Positions 7,251 through 56,660 of a DNA stretch of 64,000 bases are shown piece after piece. The DNA comes from Shigella phage ESh32. The position numbers and the translations under genes are program-made. The notes below the pieces were generated by a model that was given only the letters and a program-made list of their open reading frames with translations, was not told the DNA's origin and searched no databases. Position 1 is the first letter of the stretch; each line of letters opens with the position of its first letter. The stretch lies in the sequence record ON528742, one strand, 5' to 3'.

Positions 7251-7445
7251 ATGCTAACACGTGAACAGTTTGAAAAAATCATTAAATTAGCACGTGATAT
7301 TGAAATAGATTCATACCAATTAGCAGTTGAGCATTGTGAAGGATATTCATACGACGGTATAGAAGCAGCTAAAAGAGATTTGGATAAATCCAAAGCTAAG
7401 TTAGTTCAATATCTTGAAATGATTAGGTGGAATAATGAAAACTGA
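7251..7445 (+). CDS. hypothetical small helical protein (tandem family member)
   Basis: 64-aa ORF MLTREQFEKIIKLARD... Confidence 0.5.
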   Translation: MLTREQFEKIIKLARDIEIDSYQLAVEHCEGYSYDGIEAAKRDLDKSKAKLVQYLEMIRWNNEN

Positions 7446-7608
7446 AAAGCAGATGTTTTTAATGAAGCTAATTGAAGAATATGCTAATGCAGTTTCTGAC
7501 TATGAGTATTCTGCTCGGGAAAGAGGTACGGCTTTCGCTAAAGAAGAATTGAAAATCATGGTTGATGCTCATACAAAGCTTCAGAATTTTATCGAAAACG
7601 TCATTTAA
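7435..7608 (+). CDS. hypothetical small helical protein (tandem family member)
   Basis: 57-codon ORF read from sequence: MKTEKQMFLMKLIEEYANAV... Confidence 0.4.
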   Translation: MKTEKQMFLMKLIEEYANAVSDYEYSARERGTAFAKEELKIMVDAHTKLQNFIENVI

Positions 7609-7610
7609 TG

Positions 7611-7640
7611 GTTTACAAGTTGGCAAGGTTATGGTATAGT
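7611..7640 (+). promoter_or_regulatory. T4-type early promoter
   Basis: gtttacaagttggcaaggttatggtatagt. Confidence 0.55.
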
Positions 7641-51212: not shown

Positions 51213-51959
51213 ATGAAACTGTCTAATAATCAAATTCGTAAAATTAAACGTCGTTTAGAGCATACTCAGGCATCTGCAAAAAGACGTTCTAAAGATTTTA
51301 ACTTAGACTTCAATTACATTAAGAACATTTTAGATCAGAAAGTTTGTGCTTACTCGGGAGAACCTTTTGATAATCGTATTGAAGGAGAGAAATTATCATT
51401 AGAACGTTTTGATAATAACGTTGGATACATTAAAGGGAATGTTATTGCAGTAAAGAAAAAGTATAATACATTTCGTTCTGATTATACTTTAGAGGAGTTA
51501 ATTGAAAAACGTGATTTGTTTGCTTTGCGAATTGGTCGTTCATCTGCGAAAAAAGTTCATAAACTAAATTTAGATGAAAAGAAATGGGCTAAAATCAAAA
51601 AGACTTATAATCAAATTAAAGCTATACAGAAAAAACGTGAAAACCGAATTGAACACATTTCTCAGCTTTCTAAATCAAAACAGACCTCTGACGTTAAGCT
51701 AACGATTATAGCGCTTAAAGCTCGTATTGATGGTTCTCGCATAGCAGAAGGCGCTGAAGTTGTTAAACTGAACGTTCTTCTTAAAGGCTCGGATTGGAAA
51801 ATTGTGAAAAAGTTATCAGAAGCAGAAATGCAATATGATATGTGTGATAAAATTATTCAAGGTGTAGAGCGGTATCAAAACTTGTCTTTTATTGATAAAC
51901 TTAAACTGAAAAGAGGATACCCGCTAAATTGTTCAATTTTTAAACTTATCCGAGGATAA
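51213..51959 (+). CDS. srd: Srd-like protein (position/length consistent with T4 srd)
   Basis: 248 aa basic protein between modA and dda. Confidence 0.55.
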   Translation: MKLSNNQIRKIKRRLEHTQASAKRRSKDFNLDFNYIKNILDQKVCAYSGEPFDNRIEGEKLSLERFDNNVGYIKGNVIAVKKKYNTFRSDYTLEELIEKRDLFALRIGRSSAKKVHKLNLDEKKWAKIKKTYNQIKAIQKKRENRIEHISQLSKSKQTSDVKLTIIALKARIDGSRIAEGAEVVKLNVLLKGSDWKIVKKLSEAEMQYDMCDKIIQGVERYQNLSFIDKLKLKRGYPLNCSIFKLIRG

Positions 51960-51960
51960 T

Positions 51961-52272
51961 ATGGTTTATGTATATGCGATAGTTTACCGAGACAAAGACG
52001 GATTTACTGCGCCAGTTCCGCTTGATGAACATCGTCCTGCTGTATTTTTTGAATGGAAGATTGCTGATAAAGTATTTACCACTCTTAAAGAGCAGTATCA
52101 ACTAGCTTTAGGTAAGGGAATTCCAAGATTAGTTGAGACTCCACGTAAATTTTGGTTTAATAAAATAGAAGTTAAACATGTTAAGCCTGACGTAGACACA
52201 CAAAGATTATATCAGCGAATTTTAGATACTGGGCGTATTGTTAGTATACCAATTGCAGGGAATTTACGATGA
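51961..52272 (+). CDS. hypothetical protein
   Basis: 103-aa ORF. Confidence 0.5.
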   Translation: MVYVYAIVYRDKDGFTAPVPLDEHRPAVFFEWKIADKVFTTLKEQYQLALGKGIPRLVETPRKFWFNKIEVKHVKPDVDTQRLYQRILDTGRIVSIPIAGNLR

Positions 52273-53588
52273 CATTTGATGATTTGACCGAAGGCCAGAA
52301 AAATGCCTTTAACATTGTTATGAGGGCTATTAAAGAAAAGAAACATCATGTAACTATTAATGGACCTGCTGGTACCGGTAAGACTACTCTTACTAAGTTC
52401 ATCATTGAAGCTTTAATATCTACGGGTGAAACTGGTATTATTTTAGCAGCTCCTACACATGCGGCTAAAAAGATTCTTTCAAAACTATCAGGGAAAGAAG
52501 CGAGTACTATTCATAGTATTCTTAAAATTAACCCGGTAACATATGAAGAAAATGTTCTTTTTGAACAAAAAGAAGTACCAGATTTAGCTAAATGCAGGGT
52601 ATTAATCTGCGACGAAGTGTCAATGTATGATAGAAAGCTATTTAAAATTCTGCTTTCAACTATTCCACCTTGGTGTACTATAATTGGAATAGGGGATAAT
52701 AAGCAAATCAGACCTGTTGACCCAGGAGAAAACACTGCTTATATCAGTCCATTCTTTACACATAAAGATTTTTATCAGTGTGAACTCACTGAAGTTAAAC
52801 GCAGTAATGCTCCTATTATTGATGTAGCTACTGACGTTCGTAACGGTAAGTGGATTTATGATAAAGTTGTTGACGGGCATGGAGTACGTGGATTTACTGG
52901 TGATACAGCTTTACGCGATTTTATGGTAAATTATTTTTCAATCGTCAAATCTCTAGATGATTTGTTTGAAAATCGCGTAATGGCATTTACGAATAAATCT
53001 GTTGACAAGTTAAATAGCATTATTCGTAAAAAGATTTTTGAAACTGATAAAGATTTTATTGTCGGTGAAATTATTGTAATGCAGGAACCATTAATTAAAA
53101 CATATAAAATTGATGGAAAGCCTGTGTCAGAAATTATTTTTAATAACGGACAATTAGTTCGTATTATAGAAGCAGAGTATACATCAACCTTTGTTAAAGC
53201 TCGTGGTGTTTCTGGGGAATATCTAATTCGTCATTGGGATTTAACAGTAGAAACTTACGGTGATGATGAATATTATCGTGAAAAGATTAAAATAATTTCA
53301 TCCGATGAAGAGCTATATAAGTTTAACCTATTTTTAGGTAAAACGGCAGAAACTTATAAAAATTGGAATAAAGGCGGAAAAGCTCCGTGGAGTGATTTTT
53401 GGGATGCTAAATCACAGTTTAGTAAAGTGAAAGCGCTTCCTGCATCAACATTCCATAAAGCTCAGGGTATGTCTGTAGACCGTGCTTTCATTTATACGCC
53501 TTGTATTCATTATGCAGATGCTGAACTAGCTCAGCAGCTTCTTTATGTTGGTGTAACACGTGGTCGTTATGATGTGTTTTATGTGTGA
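52269..53588 (+). CDS. dda: Dda DNA helicase (SF1)
   Basis: 439 aa; Walker A GPAGTGKTT, Walker B ICDEVSM; matches remembered T4 Dda. Confidence 0.9.
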   Translation: MTFDDLTEGQKNAFNIVMRAIKEKKHHVTINGPAGTGKTTLTKFIIEALISTGETGIILAAPTHAAKKILSKLSGKEASTIHSILKINPVTYEENVLFEQKEVPDLAKCRVLICDEVSMYDRKLFKILLSTIPPWCTIIGIGDNKQIRPVDPGENTAYISPFFTHKDFYQCELTEVKRSNAPIIDVATDVRNGKWIYDKVVDGHGVRGFTGDTALRDFMVNYFSIVKSLDDLFENRVMAFTNKSVDKLNSIIRKKIFETDKDFIVGEIIVMQEPLIKTYKIDGKPVSEIIFNNGQLVRIIEAEYTSTFVKARGVSGEYLIRHWDLTVETYGDDEYYREKIKIISSDEELYKFNLFLGKTAETYKNWNKGGKAPWSDFWDAKSQFSKVKALPASTFHKAQGMSVDRAFIYTPCIHYADAELAQQLLYVGVTRGRYDVFYV

Positions 53589-53594
53589 GGCTAT

Positions 53595-53855
53595 ATGATT
53601 AACATCAATTCAAAATATTTAAATCGTCTAATAGATGGTATAAGGAAGCATACTAATAAGCAAGATAATCTCGATGTTATGGTAACAGGAGCTGAGCTCC
53701 TTCATAAGCTTTATCTTATAAGTGATACTATATTAGCAATTAAACGAATTGAAAAACAATCATATCACAGTAATACAGATACGGTAATTACACTAGATGA
53801 AAGTGTCTGTAAATTACTAATTAAATTTGAGGAAGCTATTCGTGGAAATAACTAA
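53595..53855 (+). CDS. hypothetical protein (tandem family, divergent member)
   Basis: 86-aa ORF. Confidence 0.5.
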   Translation: MININSKYLNRLIDGIRKHTNKQDNLDVMVTGAELLHKLYLISDTILAIKRIEKQSYHSNTDTVITLDESVCKLLIKFEEAIRGNN

Positions 53856-54087
53856 AGATCAGTTTTATCTGCTTCAAGATAAAGTGAGCGAAATTTATGA
53901 AATAGCTTATAGTAAAAATCGTAGAAATGTAAAAATTGAATCTGGCAAGTTAATGCTTCAATTAGAAGAAATTGAACGAGATTTAATTGCGTTAGAATTC
54001 TTTTGTGGTGAAGTGAAAACTGTCACAATCAGTGATTATGTTTTAGGTGAAATTAGCCATCTTTATAAGGCGGTTATTAATGATTGA
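53842..54087 (+). CDS. hypothetical protein (tandem paralog), probable GTG start
   Basis: ORF 53827..54087 (TTG); GTG at 53842 is 5 nt after GAGGAAG. Confidence 0.45.
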   Translation: MEITKDQFYLLQDKVSEIYEIAYSKNRRNVKIESGKLMLQLEEIERDLIALEFFCGEVKTVTISDYVLGEISHLYKAVIND

Positions 54088-54322
54088 ATTAAGTTTGCAT
54101 CAGTTTAAATCTCTTATGACAAATGTTAAAGCTGTCATTGAGGAAAATTCTAGTCCTGAAAATATTACTATTCGCGAAAAAGCTTTAAAGATAGTATACA
54201 GTCTTGAAGAGATACAAAAAGATATTGAATCTATGGCAAAATTTATTGATGAGCCTATTAATAAAGTTTATATCCAAGATTATACTGTAGGTCAAATTCG
54301 CGATTTAGCAAGGAAAATTTAA
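54080..54322 (+). CDS. hypothetical protein (tandem paralog)
   Basis: ORF 54047..54322; ATG at 54080; ...VYIQDYTVGQIRDLARKI parallels ...VTISDYVLGEISHLYKAV upstream. Confidence 0.45.
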   Translation: MIELSLHQFKSLMTNVKAVIEENSSPENITIREKALKIVYSLEEIQKDIESMAKFIDEPINKVYIQDYTVGQIRDLARKI

Positions 54323-55005
54323 TGTTTGATTTTATTATAGATTTTGAAACAATGGGAAGCGGTGAAAAAGCAGCTGTTATTGATTTGGCTGTAATTGCTT
54401 TTGACCCTAATCCAGAAGTCGTTGAAACATTTGATGAATTAGTTTCACGTGGCATTAAAATCAAATTTGATTTAAAAAGCCAAAAAGGACATCGTCTTTT
54501 TACTAAAAGCACTATCGAATGGTGGAAGAATCAATCTCCTGAAGCTCGAAAAAATATTGCACCATCCGATGAAGATGTAAGCACTATCGATGGTATTGCA
54601 AAATTTAATGATTACATCAATGCACATAATATCGATCCTTGGAAATCTCAAGGCTGGTGCCGTGGAATGTCGTTTGATTTTCCAATTTTAGTCGATCTCA
54701 TTCGTGATATTCAACGTCTTAATGGTGTTTCTGAGAATGAGCTTGACACATTTAAGTTAGAACCATGTAAATTCTGGAATCAGCGTGATATTCGTACCAG
54801 AATTGAAGCACTTCTGCTTGTTCGTGATATGACAACATGTCCTCTTCCAAAGGGAACCTTAGATGGATTCGTTGCGCATGATTCTATTCATGACTGTGCG
54901 AAAGACATCCTGATGATGAAGTATGCTTTGCGATATGCTATGGGTCTTGAAGATGCTCCGTCAGAGGAAGAATGCGATCCTCTATCTCTTCCAACAAAAC
55001 GATAA
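54322..55005 (+). CDS. dexA: exonuclease A (DEDDh 3'-5' exonuclease)
   Basis: 227 aa; IIDFETMG exo motif; matches remembered T4 DexA. Confidence 0.85.
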   Translation: MFDFIIDFETMGSGEKAAVIDLAVIAFDPNPEVVETFDELVSRGIKIKFDLKSQKGHRLFTKSTIEWWKNQSPEARKNIAPSDEDVSTIDGIAKFNDYINAHNIDPWKSQGWCRGMSFDFPILVDLIRDIQRLNGVSENELDTFKLEPCKFWNQRDIRTRIEALLLVRDMTTCPLPKGTLDGFVAHDSIHDCAKDILMMKYALRYAMGLEDAPSEEECDPLSLPTKR

Positions 55006-55591: not shown

Positions 55592-56095
55592 ATGATTAAA
55601 AATAATGCTGTTTATCAATTGAAAAAATTTGATGAAATTAAGAATTTTCCGGTACTGTCTAATACAGCTCATAATAAGTTTTGTGAACTTCTTGCTTTAA
55701 CTGGCGGATATCCTTTTACTGTTATTAGTGTTAATAGCGGAATTCTTATCGGCATGATGTATATTGAAATTAGAAACTATTATGGAATGGTGTCATCGCT
55801 TATTATTTATGAAAAAGATTTTAGTCTATTGACAGAAATTGAAAAAGAAGAACAGGAAAAATCCCATATTGATATGGATTTAGTTTCTATGTATGTGGCA
55901 CCAGTTGAAAAAATTGAAGACCCGACTGATTTGTTGTGTAAGGCAGTTTACATTCGTCGTCCATTCGCGAATCCGGTCGGCGGTTGGGTAACTGACCAGT
56001 GGATTGAAGATGGCGTTGAACTTCTTAATGTAGTTCATGCTGGAGAGTATTCTGTCGTTCCTCGCAGCGCAGTGATTAATGTTCGTGTAAGCTAG
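55592..56095 (+). CDS. hypothetical protein (paralog of 56169..56660)
   Basis: C-terminal ...GGWVTDQWIEDGVELLNVVHAGEYSVVPRS. Confidence 0.5.
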   Translation: MIKNNAVYQLKKFDEIKNFPVLSNTAHNKFCELLALTGGYPFTVISVNSGILIGMMYIEIRNYYGMVSSLIIYEKDFSLLTEIEKEEQEKSHIDMDLVSMYVAPVEKIEDPTDLLCKAVYIRRPFANPVGGWVTDQWIEDGVELLNVVHAGEYSVVPRSAVINVRVS

Positions 56096-56168: not shown

Positions 56169-56660
56169 ATGAATATTAATATCGGCGAAATTGCTCGTGT
56201 ATCTGATAAATCCCGTTCTAAAGCAGCAGGAAAATTGGTCGAAGTTGTAAGCATTCAGCTTAAACACGGTGTTAAAGATGAAGATTCTGAAGTAAAAGTA
56301 CGTATCATTGCTAAAGATGGAATGTCTAAGCCCCAGTTTGGTTATGTTCGATGGAAATTTCTTGAGCCTGCGTTTTTGAAAGCTGTTCCTGCTAAAGGAA
56401 TTGAAACGATTGATACTTCGCATGTAGGTGTAGACTTTAAGTGGAAACTTGGTCAAGCTATCAAGTTCATTGCTCCTTATGAGTTTGAATTTACCGAAGG
56501 TGGACAACCACTTCCTCGGCGTACTCGCGCTATGTGTGCATACATTACTGATCAATGGGTAGAAGATGGCGTTAAGTTATACAACGCGGTATTTTTAGGA
56601 ACATACAAAGTCATTCCTGAAAGTTGGATTAAACACTATAGCAAAGCTCGCTATGCATAA
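56169..56660 (+). CDS. hypothetical protein (paralog of 55592..56095)
   Basis: C-terminal ...AYITDQWVEDGVKLYNAVFLGTYKVIPES. Confidence 0.5.
   Translation: MNINIGEIARVSDKSRSKAAGKLVEVVSIQLKHGVKDEDSEVKVRIIAKDGMSKPQFGYVRWKFLEPAFLKAVPAKGIETIDTSHVGVDFKWKLGQAIKFIAPYEFEFTEGGQPLPRRTRAMCAYITDQWVEDGVKLYNAVFLGTYKVIPESWIKHYSKARYA

Follow-up and report, generated by a model that had tools for sequence, protein, structure and literature searches.

Three consecutive small ORFs lie between the helicase gene dda and the exonuclease gene dexA in Shigella phage ESh32. This locus raises the question of whether the three proteins belong to one family, as the first-pass annotation proposed from the sequence, how such a family came to occupy this interval, and what its members might do. 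We analysed a stretch of 64,000 nucleotides (sequence record ON528742; hereafter the window), which is a segment of a Tequatrovirus (T4-like) genome. Over 1.4 kb around the locus, the identity to Shigella phage Sf24 is 99.4%, and 80% or more of this stretch is covered in 483 phage records. The three ORFs were found where that annotation had placed them, on the + strand between dda and dexA. The features of the locus are as follows.

51213-51959, + strand: srd
51961-52272, + strand: dda.1
52269-53588, + strand: dda (Dda helicase), the upstream anchor; 439-aa ORF, named dda or DNA helicase in matching records, with Pfam PIF1/AAA_30 on an identical arrangement
53587-53590, + strand: GAGG, Shine-Dalgarno-like element for ORF1, read from the sequence; overlaps the dda stop codon
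53595-53855, + strand: ORF1, 86 aa, ATG start; the divergent family member
53829-53835, + strand: GAGGAAG, Shine-Dalgarno of the dexA.2 GTG, read from the sequence; inside the 3' end of ORF1
53842-54087, + strand: ORF2, dexA.2 (T4 Y00H), 81 aa, GTG start; in the position of T4 dexA.2
54080-54322, + strand: ORF3, dexA.1 (T4 Y00G), 80 aa, ATG start; equivalent to T4 dexA.1
54322-55005, + strand: dexA (exonuclease A), the downstream anchor; 227-aa ORF, annotated dexA, with PF16473 on an identical arrangement

The mechanical ORF of the second gene opens at TTG 53827, and its 81 residues are counted from GTG 53842. The GTG start that had been suggested for this gene is borne out by the T4 annotation and by the GAGGAAG element 6 nt upstream, which is the same in T4, T2, and RB32, all of which lack ORF1. 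In the family alignment, this start also gives a consistent Met-to-Met register and brings the N-terminus in line with all homologs. The genes are translationally coupled, with each start overlapping or abutting the stop before it: ORF1 and ORF2 overlap by 14 nt, ORF2 and ORF3 by 8 nt, and ORF3 and dexA by 1 nt (TAATG, in which the ORF3 TAA lies over the dexA ATG). A scan for promoters and terminators inside the interval gave nothing that exceeded shuffled sequences, and the internal promoter-like sites were not above chance. In T4, a single transcription start site and one middle-phase transcript running from dda.1 to dexA.1 have been reported (bioRxiv 10.1101/2024.04.04.588121).

Another tandem paralog pair is present downstream of dexA. 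The adjacent ORFs at 55592-56095 and 56169-56660 (+ strand; 167 and 163 aa) have the C-terminal motif DQW(I/V)EDGV.L.N.V..G.Y.V(V/I)P in common, and both are labelled PF17613 (motB) in identical arrangements elsewhere.

As their position and length correspond, ORF2 is the T4 dexA.2 gene and ORF3 the T4 dexA.1 gene. The two proteins are clear paralogs, as had been claimed: they align end to end with 28% identity and 53% positives (BLASTP E 2e-8), well beyond chance. The shared motifs quoted in support were all found (QFYLLQDKV and QFKSLMTNV; LEEIERDL and LEEIQKDI; TISDYVLGEI and YIQDYTVGQI). The last of these pairs contains a (S/Q)DYxxGxI signature, SDYVLGEI in ORF2 and QDYTVGQI in ORF3, located at the β2/α3 junction. 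Both proteins belong to the same Pfam family, PF26837 ('Phage_T4_Y00H_G'), whose name derives from the UniProt names of T4 DexA.2 (Y00H) and DexA.1 (Y00G). This assignment is based on precomputed matches, which were found on every DexA.2/DexA.1 homolog and on the products of the identical arrangement; the Pfam-A copy that we searched directly was without the PF26837 model. As PF26837 already unites the two proteins, their paralogy is curated and not new. About 496 phage records contain DexA.2 at an identity of at least 80%.

In the PHROG collection, DexA.2 corresponds to positions 1-80 and DexA.1 to positions 80-159 of phrog_1700. In phage ime09 (L023, 1961-2440, minus strand), a 1-nt deletion (GTTATTAATG changed to GTTTTAATG) at a site equivalent to about 54070-54080 of the window joins the two genes into one ORF of 159 aa, and this fusion ORF accounts for the 160-position profile of phrog_1700. 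The fusion may be real or a sequencing error. We considered it as a 'Rosetta stone' sign of a heterodimer and rejected this reading, as the deletion is of one nucleotide, is present in one record, and may be an artefact of sequencing. A protein of 112 aa from a 618-bp ENA contig (P0105) has DexA.1 as its C-terminal 40 residues, preceded by an unrelated N-terminus of 72 residues; with so short a contig, it is likely to be a chimera of assembly or gene calling.

The membership of ORF1 was the more difficult point. BLASTP gave no alignment of ORF1 with ORF2, ORF3, or the Gaprivervirus homolog, hhalign against a Tequatrovirus-only DexA.1/DexA.2 profile gave nothing (0.3% probability), and the precomputed records held no Pfam match of any strength for the exact protein or its relatives. 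ORF1 is thus not assigned to PF26837 itself. A tblastn search of 50,697 phage records with ORF1 gave no match below 80% identity, and a word-indexed homolog search gave just four near-identical clusters. Since BLASTP and the Tequatrovirus-only profile gave nothing, intermediates were needed to establish the kinship of ORF1; these came from tblastn searches, of which the first used DexA.2 and the second a distant homolog as the query. They are single-copy genes of five other genera, encoding proteins of about 76-84 aa, located between dda and dexA.

With these intermediates, the description of ORF1 as a more divergent relative was supported by several kinds of comparison. The profile phrog_5263 matches ORF1, ORF2, and ORF3 (1.8e-5, 3.1e-8, and 5.7e-4, respectively), although ORF1 itself belongs to phrog_4967 (8e-59), which is separate from phrog_1700. 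An HMM built solely from six single-copy dda-dexA proteins of the five other genera was run against the stop-to-stop ORFs of the window that are 50 aa or longer, 383 in total. The best matches were DexA.1 (1.2e-16), DexA.2 (1.1e-14), and ORF1 (1.2e-5), and the next best ORF had an E value of 1.2. ORF1 scored 19.9 bits in an alignment that starts at Met1, and none of 2000 shuffled ORF1 sequences reached this score (best shuffle, 12.6 bits); against a mixed family HMM, 1 of 2000 shuffles outscored ORF1. When the ORF1 alignment was compared with the single-copy alignment by hhalign, the probability was 84% (E 7.5e-6) over residues 1-79, and BLASTP of ORF1 with the homolog from phage Moon gave an E value of 0.002. 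In the broad sense of the family (PF26837 plus phrog_5263), ORF1 is included by the significant match of the profile of syntenic single-copy homologs.

ORF1 differs from the other members in two respects. Where the family signature (S/Q)DYxxGxI is expected, ORF1 has LDESVCKL, and its pI is 7.9 (near neutral) versus 4.4-6.1 in the other members compared, most of which are acidic (4.4-5.4). The C-terminal signature and the acidic charge are lost in ORF1.

The predicted structures gave a consistent picture. AF2 models were made for ORF1 and DexA.1; they are predictions, not solved structures. The input for the ORF1 model consisted of its four near-identical relatives only, with nothing from the rest of the family, and that for the DexA.1 model consisted of DexA.1, DexA.2, and their homologs. 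The ORF1 model (pLDDT 85, pTM 0.75) has the elements E2-5, H6-21, H26-52, E64-67, and H69-84, and the DexA.1 model (pLDDT 94.7, pTM 0.82) has E2-5, H6-22, H26-53, E62-65, and H67-79. Both are single domains of about 80 aa with β-α-α-β-α topology, and their elements agree in order and boundaries. A Foldseek search of BFVD with the ORF1 model retrieved small proteins of T4-like phages, including a 77-aa protein of Erwinia phage Cronus (TM 0.76/0.84), an 80-aa protein of Enterobacter phage CC31, DexA.2 of phage BECP11 (TM 0.69/0.73, probability 1.00), and the fused DexA.2-DexA.1 ORF of ime09. Against the PDB, the best E values for the ORF1 and DexA.1 models were 0.8-1.1, with TM below 0.5 in the top ranks. 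The family is thus predicted to consist of single-domain phage proteins of about 80 residues with a β-α-α-β-α fold that is without a solved structural analogue.

From these results, we consider it very probable that all three ORFs form one family, of which ORF1 is the divergent member. The link between ORF1 (phrog_4967) and the DexA.1/DexA.2 family appears to be unrecorded before.

To follow the history of the interval, we compared the number of family genes between dda and dexA across the Tevenvirinae.

0 copies: RB69 (Mosigvirus; L017, 3939-5939), with dexA directly after dda, separated by a 9-nt gap
1 copy: Dhakavirus vB_EcoM_005
1 copy: Gaprivervirus VR20
1 copy: Moonvirus Moon
1 copy: Karamvirus fGh-Ecl04
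1 copy: Jiaodavirus 311F and KPV15
2 copies: T4, T2, and RB32, with DexA.2 and DexA.1 and without ORF1
2 copies: Erwinia phage Cronus (Roskildevirus; L024, 7148-7408, 86 aa, and 7405-7638, 77 aa, minus strand)
3 copies: the window and T6; about 60% of Tequatrovirus records

The window and eight other phages have their family genes in the dda-dexA interval, in the orientation of the flanking genes and with coupled starts and stops. The view that a family has been expanding in this interval is upheld by the comparative genomics, as the slot holds 0 to 3 copies in the Tevenvirinae, has expanded separately at least twice, and has seen members gained and lost repeatedly. As the copy number runs from 0 to 3, all members are dispensable. 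Of five single-copy proteins assigned to PHROGs (KPV15 was not among them), four belong to phrog_5263, and the Dhakavirus protein matches the DexA.1 half of phrog_1700. In Smith-Waterman comparisons, DexA.1 and DexA.2 are closest to the Dhakavirus protein (z 23.6 and 15.8, respectively). ORF1 is nearer to the copies of Gaprivervirus (8.0) and Moonvirus (5.6) than to its own neighbours (just 0.8 and 2.1); thus, an older or imported lineage is likelier than a fresh tandem duplicate, and ORF1 is probably not a recent local duplicate of DexA.2. The two Cronus copies have a mutual z of about 5.7, above their resemblance to DexA.1, DexA.2, or ORF1, and this therefore looks like a separate duplication in Roskildevirus.

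In T4, 21 nt separate dda from dexA.2, without ORF1. One identical junction (TTTTATGTATGATTAAATTTGAGGAAGC) is present in place of ORF1 in T4, T2, and RB32 (compare 53586-53855 of the window). It leaves a remnant ORF of 12 codons (MIKFEEAIRGNN) that overlaps the dda stop codon and keeps the dexA.2 Shine-Dalgarno and GTG. Judging from this common junction, the absence of ORF1 in the three phages is one shared event, either a deletion or an insertion. In RB14, an 8-bp tandem duplication (AAATATTT) frameshifts ORF1 at about codons 6-9, and the record annotates merely a 58-aa C-terminal piece (RB14ORF15). In the record of Shigella phage sb1, ORF1 is interrupted by an in-frame stop (E80*), dexA.2 is called in truncated form, and dda is annotated as two CDSs; the cause is probably poor assembly quality and not the presence of true pseudogenes.

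ORF1 was detected by tblastn in 308 phage records; in about 300 records, the gene is intact with conservation of 90% or more. In pairwise comparisons among four phages, pN/pS was 0.03-0.37 for ORF1, 0.02-0.48 for dexA.2, and 0.24-0.33 for dexA.1 (few substitutions). By these ratios, all three genes look constrained, as expected under purifying selection. T4 DexA.2, described as 'an uncharacterized 9.5 kDa protein', has been detected by mass spectrometry in infected cells (PMC10097602); the protein is therefore made. In the same study, the CBASS cGAS was conjugated to Lys5 of T4 DexA.2 in a Cap2-dependent manner (PMC10097602).

Searches for function gave no direct lead. The family showed nothing above noise or near the cutoff in the local Pfam-A (without PF26837) and NCBIfam, none of the three proteins contains a catalytic motif, and the matches of the family profile to PDB sequences were confined to the long helix and amounted to GCN4-type coiled-coil noise. 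In an exhaustive HMMER search of 1.84 billion representatives with the DexA.1/DexA.2 profile, there were 10 matches, none of which provided a functional lead; by this count, the family is narrow. A metagenomic protein of 352 aa with six tandem HTH_28 repeats (P0111) had six weak DYxxGxI matches to the family profile (summed E 1.8e-4). We rejected it as a relative and regard the match as chance, as only the short motif matches. In public records, DexA.2 and DexA.1 (window 53842-54322) are named 'dextranase', 'exonuclease', 'tail sheath stabilizer and completion protein', or 'tail assembly protein'. These names were rejected as name propagation, as no domain or fold supports any of them. Pfam-A and NCBIfam gave no nuclease or glycoside-hydrolase domain and the PDB gave no fold match, and the names exonuclease and dextranase appear to come from the gene symbol dexA.

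The explanation that we favour as a whole, with somewhat better than even confidence, is that the dda-dexA interval is a fixed position for one family, whose members act as modulators. The three small proteins would have no enzymatic activity and would instead bind and modulate a protein of the host or the phage during the pre-replicative phase. Through duplication and divergence, copies with different partners would arise, a pattern usual for accessory genes of host takeover or counter-defence. The modulator role is suggested by the small size, the lack of catalytic motifs, the pre-replicative expression, the dispensability, and the flux in copy number. For the mechanism of protein binding itself, which draws on size, charge, missing motifs, and the evolutionary pattern, our confidence is tentative and falls short of even.

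The main rival is an accessory role, in which the proteins would serve the Dda helicase, the DexA exonuclease, or both as subunits or regulators, and the coupling would fix their proportion to the enzymes. The strict synteny favours it: all of the examined genera that carry the family (Tequatro-, Dhaka-, Gapriver-, Moon-, Karam-, Jiaoda-, and Roskildevirus) have a member in the dda-dexA slot, tightly coupled and in the same orientation, and the T4 members are co-transcribed with dda on the transcript mentioned above. It is weakened by RB69, in which dda and dexA are adjacent without a family gene. Moreover, dda and dexA stay single while the copies vary from 0 to 3, both are retained in several Tequatroviruses in which ORF1 is deleted or frameshifted, and in Aeh1 dexA is not adjacent to dda, yet structurally similar small proteins are present. 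We regard an accessory role as unlikely. A role of these small proteins as regulators that bind DNA through a helix-turn-helix was rejected and is the least probable of those considered. The weak match to P0111 through DYxxGxI and a weak match of the Dhakavirus homolog to phrog_11451, 'CI-like repressor' (1.2e-4), point in that direction, but the motif lies at the extreme C-terminus, at the junction of a β-strand and the last helix, with no helix after it and no space for a recognition helix. Most members are acidic, and neither a Pfam HTH match nor a PDB fold match to HTH proteins was obtained.

Two other rivals concern ORF1 only. If ORF1 were an independent helical protein unrelated to DexA.1 and DexA.2, its profile matches would come from composition and helical periodicity. 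The empty comparisons with its neighbours, the Tequatrovirus profile, and Pfam are what would then be expected, as are its own PHROG and the missing signature. However, beyond DexA.1 and DexA.2, ORF1 was the sole ORF of the 383 to match the single-copy HMM, its score survived shuffling, and the full-length hhalign and the Moon BLASTP matches agree with this. The order and boundaries of its strands and helices are those of DexA.1, Foldseek gave a probability of 1.00 for DexA.2 and homologs, and the slot, size, and coupling are the same as those of the neighbours; an unrelated origin is thus very unlikely. Nor does ORF1 resemble a decaying or non-coding remnant, a reading to which we give only a marginal chance. 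Its loss from T4, T2, and RB32, the frameshift in RB14, and the stop in sb1 would be consistent with decay, but about 300 records have the gene intact, its pN/pS is like that of the neighbours, a Shine-Dalgarno site precedes it, and its fold is predicted with confidence; in the case of sb1, the fragmented dda indicates that the record is probably of low quality.

A broader reading, which we consider quite unlikely, extends the modulator explanation. The dda-dexA slot would be a small diversification hotspot in which members of one fold, itself without a solved relative, are repeatedly duplicated, imported, and discarded by the Tevenvirinae, the copies being specificity variants for counter-defence or host takeover. 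ORF1, portrayed as charge-reversed and without the signature motif, would have been neofunctionalised for another target, and the conjugation of cGAS to Lys5 of DexA.2 would be a real defence encounter and not a bystander event.

If the favoured explanation of one family in a fixed slot is correct, phrog_4967 is a third, previously unlinked member of the uncharacterised DexA.1/DexA.2 family. The understanding of T4 biology is unchanged, and the main paralogy is already in Pfam. For deletion or host-panel screens of T-even accessory genes, the family is a reasonable low-cost candidate, and the full gene set would be better studied in T6 or in a phage similar to ESh32 than in T4.

Three known systems come closest. 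One is PF26837 (T4 DexA.2, or Y00H, and DexA.1, or Y00G), of which ORF2 and ORF3 are orthologs with the same length, position, and coupling. ORF1 is like this family in predicted fold, size, and slot, but differs from it in having no match to the model and no (S/Q)DYxxGxI and in being near neutral rather than acidic. The single-copy proteins of about 77 aa in phrog_5263 (Gapriver-, Moon-, Karam-, and Jiaodavirus) occupy the same slot; this profile matches all three window ORFs, and the best pairwise similarities of ORF1 are to phrog_5263 proteins. The gene is single there, whereas the window proteins are split into phrog_4967 (ORF1) and phrog_1700 (DexA.2 and DexA.1). The tandem pair of Cronus (77 and 86 aa) differs from the genes described here in that its copies resemble each other more than DexA.1, DexA.2, or ORF1; its slot, strand, and size are as here, and both copies were retrieved by the family HMMs (4e-6 to 5e-4) and by Foldseek with the ORF1 model.
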